Positions 43,401-49,400 of a DNA stretch of 64,000 nucleotides are shown here, one piece after another. The stretch comes from a virus (lineage: Duplodnaviria > Heunggongvirae > Uroviricota > Caudoviricetes), in IMG/VR virus record IMGVR_UViG_2939521961_000004; one strand, given 5' to 3'. The stretch's first letter is position 1. The number at the start of each line of letters is the position of its first letter. A program made the position numbers.

Positions 43401-46400
43401 CGGTGATGTAAACAGTGCGGGCTTTAAGAGAGAATTTTCTGACTCCTTTGCATGGGTTATTCTTCACATACCCACGCTCATATCCCCACCCGTATACTCG
43501 ACTCAGGCTTGCCAGTTCATGATTTGCCTGGGTCTTTGAACCGCCCCGGAAATCCTGGAGACTAAACTCCCTGAGAAAGAGGTAAACAGGATGACTAAAA
43601 ATACTCGTTTTTCCCCCGAAGTCCGTCAGCGGGCGATTCGTATGGTTCTGGAAAGTCAGGATGAATATGACTCACAGTGGGCGGCAATTTGTTCCATTGC
43701 CCCAAAGATTGGCTGTACGCCGGAGACTCTGCGTGTCTGGGTTCGCCAGCATGAGCGGGATACCGGGGGCGGTGATGGTGGGCTCACCAGTGCTGAACGT
43801 CAGCGTCTGAAAGAGCTGGAACGTGAAAATCGTGAACTGCGCCGCAGTAACGATATCCTTCGCCAGGCTTCCGCTTATTTTGCGAAGGCGGAGTTCGACC
43901 GCCTCTGGAAAAAATGATGCCACTGCTGGATAAGCTGCGTGAGCAGTACGGGGTCGGACCGGTATGCAGCGAACTGCATATTGCCCCGTCAACGTATTAC
44001 CATTGTCAGCAACAGCGACATCATCCGGATAAACGCAGTGCCCGTGCGCAGCACGATGACTGGCTGAAGAAAGAGATACAGCGCGTATACGATGAAAATC
44101 ACCAGGTATACGGTGTGCGTAAAGTCTGGCGTCAGTTGTTACGGGAAGGTATCAGAGTGGCCAGATGCACTGTGGCACGTCTCATGGCAGTTATGGGACT
44201 TGCCGGTGTTCTCCGGGGTAAAAAGGTCCGCACTACCGTCAGCCGGAAAGCCGTTGCCGCATGCGACCGCGTAAACCGTCAGTTCGTGGCAGAACGTCCA
44301 GACCAGTTGTGGGTGGCTGATTTTACCTGGGTAAGCACATGGCAGGGCTTCGTTTATGTGGCGTTCATCATTGATGTGTTCGCCGGATACATCGTGGGAT
44401 GGCAGGTCTCATCATCCATGGAAACAACATTCGTGCTGGATGCACTGGAGCAGGCGTTGTGGGCCCGTCGGCCGTCCGGCACAATCCATCACAGTGATAA
44501 AGGTTCTCAGTATGTATCGCTGGCCTACACGCAGCGGCTTAAGGAAGCCGGATTACTGGCATCAACAGGGAGTACTGGCGACTCGTATGACAACGCGATG
44601 GCTGAGAGCATCAATGGTCTTTACAAAGCGGAGGTAATACACCGTAATAGCTGGAAAAACCGGACAGAAGTGGAACTGGCCACACTAACGTGGGTGGACT
44701 GGTATAACAATCGACGATTGCTGGAAAGGCTGGGCCATATTCCTCCGGCAGAAGCAGAAAAAGCTTATTATGCTTCCATCGGAAATAATGATCTGGCAGC
44801 CTGAGTTCACAGATAAAATACTCTCCAGGAAACCCGGGGCGGTTCACTTGCTCTCAAGCCCTCGTTTATCCATGAAAATTCTTACCTGCTCAGTTTTGAC
44901 ATTATCAGCAAGCACTTTTCCGAATACCATCAGCAACGCCTTCTGATGTTGTCGATAATCTTTTTGGGTTCGGGGGGCCAGTTCTGTAAATGCAGGGGAG
45001 TCCATAAACATGTGCCATAATTTAGCTACGGTCATTATGTTGTGGAGTTTTGCTTTTTCCAGTTCATAATTTTGCCAGACTTTAGCTACGCTGGTTTTCC
45101 GCACTCTTCCTAGCCCTATACTTCTTGTACTTCCTTCGGGTTTCCACACGTAACTGTAACCATTCGATCTAACCCGCGGTGGCAGTACATTATCTTTTTT
45201 ATTTTTTCTTGGTCTTCCCATTGTTCAGCGCCTCAAAATCGGGTTCAGCAGAAACCAGTTCAGATGTTTTTGGCATCGTTGTCAGACCGTGTGGAATATC
45301 CCTGCGGAGAACTATGGGGTCGTTTTTAGGGCCGATTACAAATGGGATGCCGTGCAGTCTTAACTGGTGTTGCTGTTTTGTGTATCGCTCGTATTTCGTG
45401 ATCTCTTTAATCTCTGCTGGAGATAGAGTTAATTCGTACATGTGGTCACGTGCCTTTACAGCATGACCGCCGCCACTATAGCTGGTGGGCGGCGATATGG
45501 GTTGAACATCAAAAATCAGCCTGACTCGGGAGCAGTTTTTGCCAGATGGCTGAAACGTATTTCGCCTGGTAACGTGCATCGTTCAGAGCGTTATGGCGTT
45601 CACCTTCGAATGGAATAGTCGTTCTTGCGTCGAAATCCATCACCAGTCCCAGAGCAACCATCGTTCTTACATCGCGATCATTGGTGTAACGCCACGGGCA
45701 GGGGATCCCCTGCCGTTCATATGAACGGCGTAAAATCACGTTGTCGAAAGTTGCACCGTTACCCCAGACCTGAACAAAAAATTCACCGGAGTTTTCGTCG
45801 ATAAATTCCCGTAATTGCAGCAGTGCATCATCTAACGGGATTTCATCGGTAAGAATGGCGGATTGCGCTTCGCGTGACTGTTTCAGCCACCACTTAATGG
45901 TGTCCCGATCAATGACTCCGCCAGCAGTTTCCAGATCGATAGTTTTGCTGAATTCTGGCCCCATCTCTCCGGTTTGCGGATCGAAAAATATTGCACCTAT
46001 TGAGATAATCGGGGCATCAGGATTTTTTCCCATGGTTTCAAGGTCGATCATCAGATGAATCCCCGCTCTGCTGGTGGATGTGAGATTATGATGACCGTTC
46101 GCCTTAATTAAGGGATCTGACGCCTCGCCAGTTTCACTATCGCTGGCATGATGCTGATTGCCGCCAGTGTTCTCCTTGTGCTGATGCGCAGTGCCTTCCA
46201 TTTCCTCCGGATCATTTTCCTGAACTTCAGGCTGATTCTCTTCATCGAATATTTCCTGGTATGTTGCGTCACTTATCACCGCACCACAATCAGGGCAGCT
46301 ACCGCCGCCGGTCTGACCGCAGGCGGTGCAGGCTTTTTCCGGCTCCTGTTTCGTTTCTGGCTCGTTTTGTTGCGCATTTGGGCTGTTTTGTTCCGTTTTC

Positions 46401-49400
46401 TGGTCGTTCTGTTCCGATTCTTGCTGGTTCTGGTTCACAGAATCGCAGGTTTCAATCCCCTTCACCCATTTCGGATCATTCGGATCGCTAATCCCTTCAA
46501 CAAATTCACCACGTGATGCAGCAAGCAATTTATCGGCGTCAGGCTGGCTGATATTGGCTGCCTGCATAATTTTGTTTACTTCGTCAGCGGTAACTTTTAC
46601 CGGCTCCGGTTGTACGGAATCTTCAGCGGTATCCACATTTTGCGGTAAGTCCGTGTATGTTCCGTTTTTGCGGGCAAGATATTCTTCTTTCGTGATTTCA
46701 GTAGCCCCGGCAGCCAGTGCCTTATCCAGACCAGAAAGTTTGTTTGCGCGACCGTATTTTTCGCCATCCTTGTCGGTGAAGAGGAAGTAGAACGGCCCCT
46801 CACGCTCTACAGATGGTTCGACTTCCACTTTGCATTCGGTTTTTTCGTTGTCCGGAATTGCCGTTTCCACTGCATCAGTTTCTGGTACTGGCGACGAGAG
46901 AGTATCAGTTGCGCTCTGATTTGTTCCTTCATCTTCAAACACGCCCTTTGTAGTCAGGTATTCAGTAATGTATTTGTTCAGTGCCACAGGGTCTTTGTGA
47001 ATGTCGATCGGACGTTCACGGACAAGGCCAAAAATAGTCTGGCGGTCGTAGCGAAGGGCATCAGGCTGTTTGCGCATTGATGCCGAGATACGCTTCCAGT
47101 CTTCGCGGTCGTTGTCGATAACTTCATTTTTTGCCCAGCGATGGATGCTGCCGTCAATGTTTCCGGCATCCACATCACCAGGCCAGAGAGCGTAGGCCAG
47201 TTCGTCATCCAGTGTTTTCCATGTCTGCTTGTATTCGCGATGAATGGCAGCAATGACCGGGCTGATTTTTCCTGTTGAATTTTCAGTGTGCTGTTGATTG
47301 GCTCTGGCGCGGGCGAGATCAACAACAGACGTGTATTTTCCGGTTTCCTTGCGTTCACCTTCGCGACGTTTTTTCCAGATGCGCATCTCTGCCTGAATTT
47401 CGGGCCATTTGGCACCTGGCTTACATTTATGCTTAACCCACCCGATGGCATGCAGCTTAAGCTCCGGATACATGGCGTTAACTTCTGGCATTTTCATCAA
47501 CGCTTCAACGATATGTCCGTCGAATGTTGCCATGTCTTCCTGCAACAGTTCCTGCGCGCTAATCACCATATCAACGGTGATGTTTTCACATGTGTCGAAC
47601 TTAACCATGACAGCGTTCTGTACTTCAGGGGCCAGCTTGTCAAAAGTGACGTTTATCGGATCTGATTCAGTCTCAACCGGGACAAAGGAAGCAGACTCCT
47701 CATCCCAGCGGTTTTCCTGCATATATTCAGCATCCCAGGAATCGAGGGCAGGGCGGGGAATACCGGGTTTATCCTCGCAAACAAGAAATTTATAAGCGCA
47801 GTCCTGAGCAGCCGGATAATGTTCCAGGAATTGCCAGTGAAATTTTGCGCGGGCGCGACGTTCATCACCGGCTTCAATGGCAGTGGCTACAGCGACTGCA
47901 CCTTCTTCCTTTATTGCCTGTTCGTCCGGAATGGCGGCGCAAATAAAGACTTTACTCATTTTGTTTTACCTCATTACAGATTTCAGGGTGAACGAATCCC
48001 TGCCATTGCTGGCATTTTTAATCCGTTGGTATGGTGTTAATATGGCTGGAGGGTTATCCAGCCGGTGTTTCGTTATTCAGGTACAGCGATACTTTTTTTA
48101 CCGGGAGGCATTCACCAGAAATTTTTTGCTCGTCTCTTGCCTGGAGGCAGGATTCTTTACTGGCATAAATTCCGGTAATCACATTCTGTGATTCACCCGT
48201 TATAAGAAAAACCGTCATCATCAGTGCAAATGCTGAAGTTATTGACGTTCTCCGAAAATACCAAGTTCAAGAAGAGCAATTCGGGAAAGTATGGAATTAT
48301 CATTGAGCAGATAAGGCTCATATTTCCTCATATTAATGGCATCTTCAGTAAACTCCCGGTTACTGAGCAGAACACCAATATCAAAACAACCTTCAGACGT
48401 ATTAACGTTTGGTAATAACGTTTCCATTATCGCGTCCTCAACAATGAATTTTGTGATGCGGTGCCTGGTGCCTCCAGGTGACGTTAACCAGTTAACAATT
48501 AACGCCGGATACAGAGAATCCACCCATAACACTGTTTTTGGTTTTAACTGTTCCGCGTGCGCTGAGCCGCATTCACCGCATCACAAAATTCACTTTAAAA
48601 AGGGCGGCAGAGCAGCCACGGAGTAAAACTGATACCGCCAAACGTCACCAGAAAATTGATAACAGAGGGCGTTGCAGCGGGGTTGTCACTTAAGCGTATG
48701 GTCAACCTGACAACCCGGTGTCCTCAACTGGGGAAGGAATAACCCCGCCATACTTACCGCCGCGCCATTTCGCGGATTGCCACAACCGGAAGCGCACGGT
48801 CGACGAAAATTTAACGACAGGCTATCTATGAACCAGCTACCTCGCCGTGCGCTTTCGCGTTATGGTCTGACTTTTCAGGGAAATATCCTTTCAGTAAACT
48901 GTCAGTGCCGGATGCTCACCCGTGTCCGGCGCACGCACTCCACCTCACCCGTGGAGAACTCCTTAATTACCAACCTTAGCTTCGTTGGTTAGCTATTAAC
49001 GCGGGTATGTAATCATTCTGGCAATGCTTAATGCCGCTGCTTTTTCCAGATTGGTGATATCCTGCTCCAGAGCGGACAGATTTTCAGCCTGCTTAGCCCT
49101 GGCTTCATTGGCCCATTTCAGGTCCTGCGCTGCCTTAATTTTCTGGTGCATCCACTCATAAAGTTCATCATCGGTATAGTCTGGCGCGATGATGACGGGT
49201 TCTCGTTTCTGCATGTCGGCTCCTTGTGGTTAGCGCTGCCTGCTTTTAACCACGTCAGGCGAGGTGGTATCCTCTGAGGGGTCTGTTACTCGAGAGGAAA
49301 TTGGTTATGAATACAATCAAGTTTTCTTGCCCAGAATGTGGTGGCGAAGTCTTTGACACATCCTTTAAACCGCATGGCTCTGACAGTTTCGCGGGAGCCA

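Follow-up and report, generated by a model that had tools for sequence, protein, structure and literature searches.

Intact ydfE of a Qin-like prophage: a RecE-family mosaic with a predicted DEDDh exonuclease domain

What does a lambdoid prophage encode at the integrase-proximal end of its early-left operon when the expected recombination genes are missing, and what would such a protein do there? The question is raised by a gene at 45509..47959, on the minus strand of a 64,000-nucleotide stretch of Caudoviricetes DNA (IMG/VR record IMGVR_UViG_2939521961_000004; hereafter the window). The 816-codon reading frame put forward by the original prediction is real: it begins with an ATG that has a GAGG 9 nt on its 5′ side, and RefSeq also annotates it, as WP_000048499.1, an accession that we assigned via an annotated stretch 100% identical to the window. 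Over its first 256 residues the protein matches the K-12 Qin pseudogene ydfE (b1577) at 97% identity, and near-identical proteins carry precomputed hits to both PF27430 (YdfE_N) and PF27432 (YdfE_C). The gene is ydfE of E. coli prophages in its intact form. This identity of the first 256 residues is new here; the gene family itself is common and already catalogued, through RefSeq annotation and the Pfam YdfE_N/YdfE_C entries. The arrangement described below, a RecE-type protein with a DEDDh C terminus, is neither rare nor new: the near-identical protein cluster (P0110) contains 23,183 member sequences, and the gene ranks among the commonest large prophage genes of pathogenic E. coli, often with several copies per genome. 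We found no published test of its function in the literature.

The C-terminal domain (aa 635–812; 45524..46057, minus strand) is of the DEDDh 3′–5′ exonuclease type (Rv2179c/DexA family). It matched PF16473 (Rv2179c-like, DEDDh/DnaQ superfamily) with 221 bits against a cut-off of 27 (E = 9.7e-66, profile positions 2–177 of 177) and has the RNase H-like α/β fold of DEDD exonucleases. The Exo I, II and III catalytic residues are intact, namely D639 and E641 (DxE), which align with D7 and E9 of DexA, D739, and H789 with D794 (Hx4D); each is kept in 34–37 of 37 relatives. The PD-(D/E)XK profile PF12684, which does match Rac RecE and SPN3UB gp44, had no match in the 816-aa protein, and phmmer with both RecE nuclease domains retrieved nothing among the DEDDh-class proteins. 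A C terminus of the λ-Exo/RecE type was thereby excluded, and the predicted DnaQ/DEDDh assignment stood, as the profile searches did not place this domain in the RecE/λ-Exo fold.

The region in front of the nuclease had been described as a long stretch of unknown function, a description that did not survive: AlphaFold2 (AF2) gave confident domains at aa 1–205, 245–345 and 385–435, YdfE_N and YdfE_C were recognized, and, beyond the 256 residues of ydfE, the region is a RecE-family scaffold. First comes an α/β and helical domain (YdfE_N; aa 1–235; 47255..47959, minus strand), in which the pLDDT is mostly >85 across aa 1–205. A helical MID domain follows (aa 236–345; 46925..47254, minus strand; pLDDT 89–97), which aligns with RecE 278–340 and SPN3UB gp44 and forms the core common to RecE-family proteins. 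A small β-rich domain (aa 385–435; 46655..46807, minus strand; pLDDT 90–96; strands at 390–396, 399–405 and 419–422) is kept in YdfE_N-type relatives. Last, an acidic, Q/N-rich linker (aa 464–618; 46106..46570, minus strand), predicted to be disordered with pLDDT <50, is homologous to Rac RecE 452–591 by BLASTP. The linker contains the predicted CxxC-x7-CxxC motif (C544, C547, C555 and C558; 46286..46330, minus strand), which is also kept in Rac RecE; the motif is present as claimed, but the zinc ribbon suggested for it is only putative, because this stretch has a pLDDT <50, with no confident fold, and only 8/64 family ORFs carry the motif.

The RecE homology extends over aa 262–618, which align with Rac RecE 278–591 (BLASTP E = 2e-56), and is strongest at its end: aa 464–618 share about 75% identity with RecE, the four cysteines included, and window positions 46107–46535 share 79% DNA identity over 430 bp with recE codons 455–591. 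At both the protein and the DNA level, homology stops where the PD-(D/E)XK domain of RecE begins, with no DNA similarity to recE detectable past codon 591 (window position 46107). This homology and its end point are new here. The protein has the central MID domain and the acidic linker of RecE and lacks the PD-(D/E)XK C terminus, an adjacent recT and a full-length score to the NCBIfam RecE equivalog NF007259 (259.7 bits against a cut-off of 1269, with only aa 453–619 matching). Judged from these alignments, it belongs to the RecE (exonuclease VIII) family as a mosaic protein that has retained the N-terminal scaffold. In its history, the PD-(D/E)XK 5′–3′ exonuclease domain and the adjacent recT may have been swapped, as one cassette, for a DEDDh domain of the DexA/Rv2179c type. 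A pattern count located a Chi site (GCTGGTGG; 46070..46077, plus strand) at codons 628–630, where RecE homology has already ended and the DEDDh domain has not yet begun; any role for it in the mosaic joint is speculative.

A survey of 185,579 species genomes yielded 63 loci with this scaffold, of which 59 were classifiable Enterobacteriaceae loci (45 PD-(D/E)XK and 14 DEDDh). A recT gene lay directly downstream in 43/45 PD-(D/E)XK loci but in 0/14 DEDDh loci, 13 of which continue for 1.2 kb or more on the downstream side. Among 75 ORFs that lie upstream on the same strand in the DEDDh loci, none matched an SSAP, SSB or Gam family of Pfam. Overall, the scaffold carries four C-terminal classes, a PD-(D/E)XK exonuclease, a Rad52-fold annealase (in other prophages), DEDDh and a fourth, uncharacterized domain, and the MID domain occurs in all four. 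The mutual exclusion of recT and DEDDh and the Rad52-fold fusion are new here. Because the other identified partners of the scaffold are DNA-end or ssDNA enzymes (a 5′–3′ exonuclease and the Rad52-fold annealase) and T4 DexA is a DNase, the C-terminal domain is probably a metal-dependent 3′-to-5′ exonuclease with DNA 3′ ends, not RNA, as its substrate. Both substrate and polarity are read from family membership, and the member that gives the family its name, Rv2179c, is an exoribonuclease.

The gene is the last of a Qin-type dicBF early-left operon in the order ydfC-DicF-dicB-ydfD-exo-xis-int. Upstream, all on the minus strand, lie the DicF sRNA (48602..48653; Rfam RF00039, 75 bits against a gathering score of 48), which contains a terminator-like hairpin at 48619–48604, dicB (48239..48427; Pfam DicB, E = 2.8e-36; RefSeq), which encodes a cell-division inhibitor, and a ydfD-like gene (48054..48221; DUF1482, PF07358, E = 7.5e-13; RefSeq). 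The minus-strand ORFs at 47960..48240 had been proposed as the place to look for an annealing partner; the ORF at 48054..48221 is the YdfD gene, not one for an annealing protein, and the ORF at 48239..48427 is dicB. Downstream, also on the minus strand, a DUF4224 excisionase-like gene (45199..45441; PF13986; RefSeq) occupies the position that recT has in Rac, followed by the integrase (42889..45221; RefSeq), which is split by an IS3-family element (43591–44804, plus strand; RefSeq; ALIL pseudoknot at 43872–43988). The gene thus takes, as predicted, the place beside xis-int that recE-recT has in Rac and in Gifsy-like phages. The prediction that it has no Bet/RecT-like partner was likewise borne out in the operon, in the upstream ORFs of the DEDDh loci and in the prophage annotation: up to the terminase, RefSeq annotates RusA but no annealing protein, SSB or Gam, and the RefSeq annotation of phage mEp460, whose copy of the gene is 93% identical, lists no SSAP, SSB or Gam. 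The operon is repressor-controlled, and the prophage is Qin/mEp460-like and lambdoid.

What such a protein might do is suggested by the distribution of Chi. The 21 kb of prophage contain seven Chi sites in the active orientation and one in the inactive, against about 0.4 expected, and mEp460 has seven in the active orientation, just below the at least eight typical of phages that have no Rec module. Active Chi sites number 4.6 per 10 kb in DEDDh loci versus 2.3 in recET loci (Mann–Whitney p = 0.0014), a merely two-fold difference between phylogenetically related loci of which the recET class is Chi-rich as well. In E. coli, RecBCD requires near-blunt ends, which are provided by host 3′ ssDNA exonucleases. 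Zheng et al. 2025 report that RecBCD aids lambdoid phages lacking a Rec module and that such phages are rich in Chi (PMC12315714).

We infer that the protein is most likely a DNA 3′-end exonuclease made in lytic growth by Chi-rich, recombinase-less phages. The best explanation of the locus as a whole, which we offer tentatively, is that of an intact ydfE whose product is a RecE mosaic with a swapped cassette and serves as such an exonuclease. The protein would be produced only upon derepression. More speculatively, these Chi-rich phages have neither an annealase nor a RecBCD inhibitor and would therefore depend on host RecBCD and RecA; the exonuclease could trim 3′ tails to give blunt ends onto which RecBCD loads or, alternatively, could scavenge host DNA as DexA does. 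Counting against a role in recombination, 3′–5′ DnaQ-like exonucleases usually inhibit homologous recombination instead of promoting it, according to PMC12315714, whose authors left isolated nuclease genes of this kind out of the Rec-module members. Guilt by association with RecE is also weak, because the N-terminal scaffold of RecE has itself no assigned function (PMC11611040).

An unlikely alternative is that the protein excludes superinfecting phages in the manner of HREX, its DEDDh domain digesting T-even DNA of the 5hmC type while sparing unmodified host and prophage DNA. DicB, encoded in the same operon, influences phage sensitivity. The domain belongs to the same Pfam family as DexA and shares 32% identity with it and 40% with an EcD-like standalone protein. 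Kang et al. 2025 (PMC12153337) report that EcD, a standalone E. coli homologue of DexA for which such selective digestion of modified DNA has been described, breaks down T4 DNA and confers protection from T4, and that DexA homologues are most prevalent in Escherichia. DexA needs W152 and D169 for activity on 5hmC DNA (PMC12153337). The acidic residue is present here as D775, but W152 corresponds to T759 (in a three-sequence MAFFT alignment of uncertain register, with W756 three residues upstream), and the position aligned with T759 is Trp in only 14/37 relatives. Nor is the EcD signature, the loss of DexA D90, found: D711 stands in that column, where the EcD-like protein has Ala78. Moreover, the gene lies in a repressed early-left operon behind the DicF terminator and has no promoter-like site of its own (no σ70-like promoter was found on the coding strand in 45100–49800), so that a lysogen awaiting attack would not be making the protein. 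Superinfection exclusion also leaves unexplained both the fusion to a RecE scaffold and the reciprocal exchange with PD-(D/E)XK and recT.

We regard as improbable an RNA exonuclease like Rv2179c/RNase AS or oligoribonuclease, which would trim or degrade RNA 3′ ends (poly(A), small RNAs or nanoRNAs) while the phage develops. An exoribonuclease gave the Pfam family its name, 3′-5′ exoribonuclease is a frequent RefSeq name for the protein, and a processed sRNA, DicF, is encoded in the same operon; however, the closest characterized viral relative, DexA, is a DNase (PMC12153337), and the scaffold otherwise carries DNA enzymes, the RecE nuclease and the Rad52-fold annealase. Structural matches have no weight either way, because a DEDDh fold says nothing on the choice between DNA and RNA. 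The already disfavoured reading that the gene is decaying cargo of a defective prophage, kept without current function because it is stuck in the chromosome, is very improbable: the integrase is split, the annotation of the matching strain shows a frameshift in a cro-like gene and IS2 has truncated the copy in K-12 Qin, but the 2.45-kb reading frame is intact, its catalytic residues are conserved, both folded end domains have a dN/dS of 0.12 (dS 0.08–0.45), the gene occurs in the sequenced phage mEp460, and the DEDDh form is present in 14 species-representative genomes of several genera. The gene is under purifying selection, with an overall dN/dS of 0.22 against the mEp460 copy and 0.34–0.49 in the acidic linker. 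The IS-disrupted integrase beside this copy and the pseudogene in K-12 indicate that it is dispensable for the host.

A broader proposal, that the RecE/YdfE scaffold is a general platform of enterobacterial lambdoid phages for delivering DNA-end enzymes, with the DEDDh form marking a recombinase-free strategy that prepares ends for RecBCD and Chi, is doubtful and distinctly unlikely as it stands. If the end-preparing role were true, a 3′-end-trimming nuclease, in this strategy all that the phage itself provides, would be the missing phage-encoded component of the Chi-rich lambdoid class that has no Rec module. A RecE derivative into which a nuclease of opposite polarity has been swapped would be a natural experiment on the role of the N-terminal two-thirds of RecE (PMC11611040), and the same swap would bear on recombination-dependent replication in recombinase-less lambdoid phages (PMC12315714). 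In addition, some of the ‘DexA homologues’ counted in E. coli may not be standalone genes but parts of this early phage protein.

Compared with known systems, the catalytic domain resembles T4 DexA (PDB 8kel), with which it shares identical DEDDh catalytic residues. DexA and EcD, however, are standalone proteins of 190–227 aa, whereas here the domain forms the C terminus of an 816-aa RecE-type protein, and the Trp proposed to read or stack on 5hmC in DexA is Thr. Rv2179c/RNase AS (PDB 4hec), an exoribonuclease, and Cap18 (PDB 7t2s), an accessory of CBASS defence operons, are likewise small, cellular and single-domain, with neither a RecE scaffold nor a phage early operon. Zheng et al. 2025 (PMC12315714) place genes for DnaQ-like 3′–5′ nucleases in the early-left operons of lambdoid phages, often close beside int and not within a recognizable Rec module, as in this prophage, which also lacks annealase and Gam genes and is rich in Chi sites of the active orientation. 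The paper leaves the role of such nucleases open, and in the sections used here it describes neither the RecE-scaffold fusion nor the exclusion of recT. K-12 Qin has the same gene order, ydfC-DicF-dicB-ydfD-ydfE-(xis)-int, but its ydfE is cut by IS2E after codon 256 and has lost the nuclease and all else on the 3′ side, whereas the window copy is complete. Rac RecE (866 aa, against 816 here) is encoded at the same early-left position, just upstream of xis-int, and has a homologous MID domain and acidic linker; the two differ in the first domain (PF06630 Exonuc_VIII there, YdfE_N here), in the adjoining recT, which is absent here, and in the nuclease, which is PD-(D/E)XK (5′–3′) in Rac and DEDDh, predicted to be 3′–5′, in the window.

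The 816-aa protein encoded at 45509..47959 (−) ends in a full-length match to Pfam PF16473 (Rv2179c-like 3′–5′ exoribonuclease domain; E = 9.7e-66) that contains all three DnaQ motifs, IDLET (D639 and E641), NGATFD (D739) and HNALND (H789 and D794), each catalytic residue being kept in 34 to 37 of 37 related domains. PDB sequence matches were confined to T4 DexA (8kel and 8ken; E = 5e-7 at best), and the domain matched the folds of CBASS Cap18 (7t2s; 25% identity, score 17.1), RNase T (3ngy; 17.1), T4 DexA (8kel; 15.8), Rv2179c (4hec; 14.7) and Pol III epsilon (1j53; 14.4). Together, the Pfam match, motifs and fold matches bear out the original prediction of a DnaQ/DEDDh-type C terminus; the RecE/lambda-Exo fold, incompatible with that reading, is not present there and is ruled out.

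A full-length protein search returned only relatives of at least 90% identity. With 47 aligned sequences as input, AlphaFold2 gave a model that was confident for an N-terminal alpha/beta plus helical domain (residues 1–205), the helical MID domain (245–345), a small beta-rich domain (385–435) and the DEDDh domain (635–812), and residues 440–634 are predicted to be disordered. The CxxC...CxxC motif noticed earlier is real (cysteines 544, 547, 555 and 558) and shared with RecE. It lies in this low-confidence linker, is carried by just 8 of the 64 ORFs of the family, and could possibly form a zinc knuckle. The disordered linker also holds a short, strongly conserved motif (aa 480–498; window 46466–46522, −) that is common to Rac RecE and recurs at a different position in gp44 of Salmonella phage SPN3UB. 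It resembles a linear motif for protein binding; in the other 64 loci, no instance was found with a strict regular expression.

The N-terminal region, previously described as being of unknown function, proved to be a RecE-family scaffold. By BLASTP against K-12 Rac RecE, residues 262–618 align with RecE 278–591 (E = 2e-56), the final 155 residues of this stretch being about 75% identical; at the DNA level, window 46107–46535 is 79% identical to recE codons 455–591, and nothing is detectable beyond. The homology stops near the start of the RecE PD-(D/E)XK domain, which PF12684 places at Rac RecE residues 615–850, the nuclease domain having been reported as residues 564–866 (PMC11611040). Between the end of the RecE homology and the DEDDh domain's first strand, codons 628–630 contain a Chi sequence (window 46070–46077, +), whose position at the mosaic joint may be a coincidence; the phage mEp460 gene has one at the equivalent place. 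A second Chi (45481–45488, +) lies between the 816-aa gene and xis. The first 256 residues are 97% identical to the product of the K-12 ydfE pseudogene, which is interrupted by IS2E, and this identity and the dicBF operon setting identify the gene as an intact ydfE.

The scaffold is narrow in distribution: an exhaustive phmmer search with aa 1–460 against 1.84 billion representative proteins returned 190 clusters only, and the loci from species-representative genomes were all in Enterobacteriaceae except for one bin labelled Veillonella. Among 59 long representatives, domains are freely shuffled. The first domain is either PF06630 (as in RecE) or YdfE_N (as in the window protein) and is followed by the universal helical MID domain, and the C terminus is PD-(D/E)XK, DEDDh, or one of two kinds lacking a Pfam entry, C3 (phrog_7838) and C4 (phrog_26058); phage vB_EcoS-813R8 combines a RecE-type first domain with a DEDDh domain. 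The fourth class, for which no Pfam or PDB sequence match was found, comprises representatives P0125 (aa 446–702), P0216, P0229, P0264 and P0269 and one genomic locus (L067, 7200–9152), all on the same scaffold. A Rad52-fold fusion on this scaffold may correspond to the "RecE-2" proteins, which PMC12315714 describes as lacking a nuclease domain.

The choice of C terminus goes together with the neighbouring gene. Rac and phage SPN3UB have recE(PD-(D/E)XK)–recT, whereas the window, mEp460 (93% identical protein) and 813R8 have exo(DEDDh)–xis–int without recT. A scan with the MID-domain alignment, in which each of 185,579 species was represented by a single genome, returned 63 loci, which were classified by phmmer. 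recT lies directly downstream at 43 of the 45 PD-(D/E)XK-type loci (of the two exceptions, one runs off the contig end and one is frameshifted) and at none of the 14 DEDDh-type loci (in 13 of them, the sequence extends 1.2 kb or more downstream); these counts are not independent events, because the loci are related by descent. On this pattern, the unit of exchange is the nuclease domain plus recT versus the DEDDh domain. No RecT, Erf, Rad52, SSB or Gam family member was found in 75 same-strand ORFs upstream of DEDDh genes, which contained repressors and small operon genes only, and RusA is the sole recombination function in the RefSeq annotation of the second prophage (up to the terminase), as in that of mEp460. 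The ORFs at 47960–48240, considered as a possible annealase, are YdfD/DUF1482 and are ruled out. Together, these results show a DEDDh domain, with its full set of catalytic residues, tethered to a RecE-type scaffold in an early-left position and without a partner annealase.

The window contains two lambdoid prophages arranged head to tail (1–42600 and 42889–64000). The first, which ends at about 42,600, starts with its immunity region and extends to tail fibres and an effector with EspF repeats; this TccP/EspF-like type III effector gene (41333–42085, −) and an EspV fragment (42410–42592, −) lie at the junction of the two. The second begins with an integrase gene (42,889–45,221, −) interrupted by an IS3-family element (43591–44804) that carries an ALIL frameshift pseudoknot (43872–43988), and the 816-aa gene is its third gene, with an ATG start and GAGG nine bases 5′ of it. 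In the sense of transcription, the operon consists of the repressor region, ydfC (48996–49214), the DicF sRNA (48602–48653, −; Rfam 75 bits, with its own terminator hairpin, upstream of dicB), dicB (48239–48427), ydfD/DUF1482 (48054–48221), the 816-aa gene, a DUF4224 excisionase-like gene (45199–45441) and int. This is the dicBF operon as found in Qin of K-12. A crude consensus scan of the coding strand at 45,100–49,800 detected nothing like a sigma-70 promoter, so the simplest reading is that the gene belongs to the early-left transcript and is repressed with it. An internal promoter for the gene was rejected because the minus strand has no promoter-like site, which is weak evidence given the crude scan.

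Several further features were observed in the two prophages. Window 48443–48640 is 78% identical to the kilR–kilS region of Rac, a HigB/HigA toxin–antitoxin pair (49876–50585, +) lies between ydfC and the repressor of the second prophage, and the cro-like regulator of that prophage (about 51151–51410, +) is frameshifted according to the annotation of the matching RefSeq genome. Other toxin–antitoxin pairs are RelE/RelB (1079–1557, −) and hokD–sok (8168–8491, +) in the first prophage and ParE/ParD (about 58146–58708, −) in the second. Downstream of Q, both prophages have the same tRNA-Ile, tRNA-Arg, tRNA-Arg triplet, after which come the sRNA STnc100 and an esterase gene of the SASA family (13068–13584 and 62392–63585, +).

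We tentatively favour, at somewhat below even odds, an exonuclease that attacks DNA 3′ ends and serves the phage in DNA metabolism or recombination. The protein would act on DNA as a 3′–5′ exonuclease, since T4 DexA, its nearest characterized viral relative, is a DNase (PMC12153337) and the other heads of the scaffold are DNA-end enzymes; it would do so during lytic growth. Over 21 kb, the second prophage has seven Chi sequences in the active and one in the inactive orientation, where base composition predicts about 0.4. Across 16-kb loci, active-orientation Chi occurs at 4.6 per 10 kb at DEDDh-type and 2.3 at recET-type loci (p = 0.0014), and recET loci are also strongly strand-biased. RecBCD needs near-blunt ends. 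Trimming of 3′ tails by the enzyme could create ends on which RecBCD can load, a specific model that we regard as doubtful; within the same explanation, the enzyme might instead scavenge host DNA, as DexA does.

An unlikely alternative is modification-dependent defence of the HREX type, in which standalone EcD, an E. coli DexA homologue, digests T4 DNA and protects cells (Kang et al. 2025, PMC12153337). Searching by primer sequences, we found an EcD-like standalone protein (MIDTET start, Ala78) and no TIPETY-ending protein, and the comparison uses this IMG/VR protein in place of exact EcD (HAK9828821.1); the window domain is only 40% identical to it. In alignment, DexA W152, the tryptophan reported there as essential for 5hmC DNA, corresponds to Thr759, DexA D90, whose loss (Ala78) defines EcD, is kept as D711, and the gene appears silent in lysogens. 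An exonuclease acting on RNA, to which the family name and several fold matches point, is less probable still, as the fold is blind to DNA versus RNA and the scaffold context favours DNA. That the gene is decaying cargo is very improbable and is contradicted by the selection data: against mEp460 and 813R8, dN/dS is 0.11–0.12 in the DEDDh domain (dS about 0.42–0.45), 0.12 in the N domain and 0.34–0.49 in the disordered linker, the pattern that a functional protein whose tether is flexible should show.

Finally, the protein is already catalogued. It is exactly RefSeq WP_000048499.1, named "exonuclease" or "3′–5′ exonuclease", with tens of thousands of member sequences in near-identical clusters; PHROG 2082 spans it end to end, and the family has the Pfam entries YdfE_N and YdfE_C. 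Literature searches on PF16473 or ydfE returned nothing useful. Three points were not found in the published accounts reviewed, namely that the protein is explicitly a RecE mosaic joined at the domain boundary, that its DEDDh form and recT strictly exclude each other, and that this scaffold is also fused to a Rad52 fold; all three are incremental over what is known. DnaQ-type nucleases near int in lambdoid phages are in print (PMC12315714), and the setting of the second prophage fits the class of Chi-rich lambdoid phages lacking a Rec module that Zheng et al. 2025 describe.
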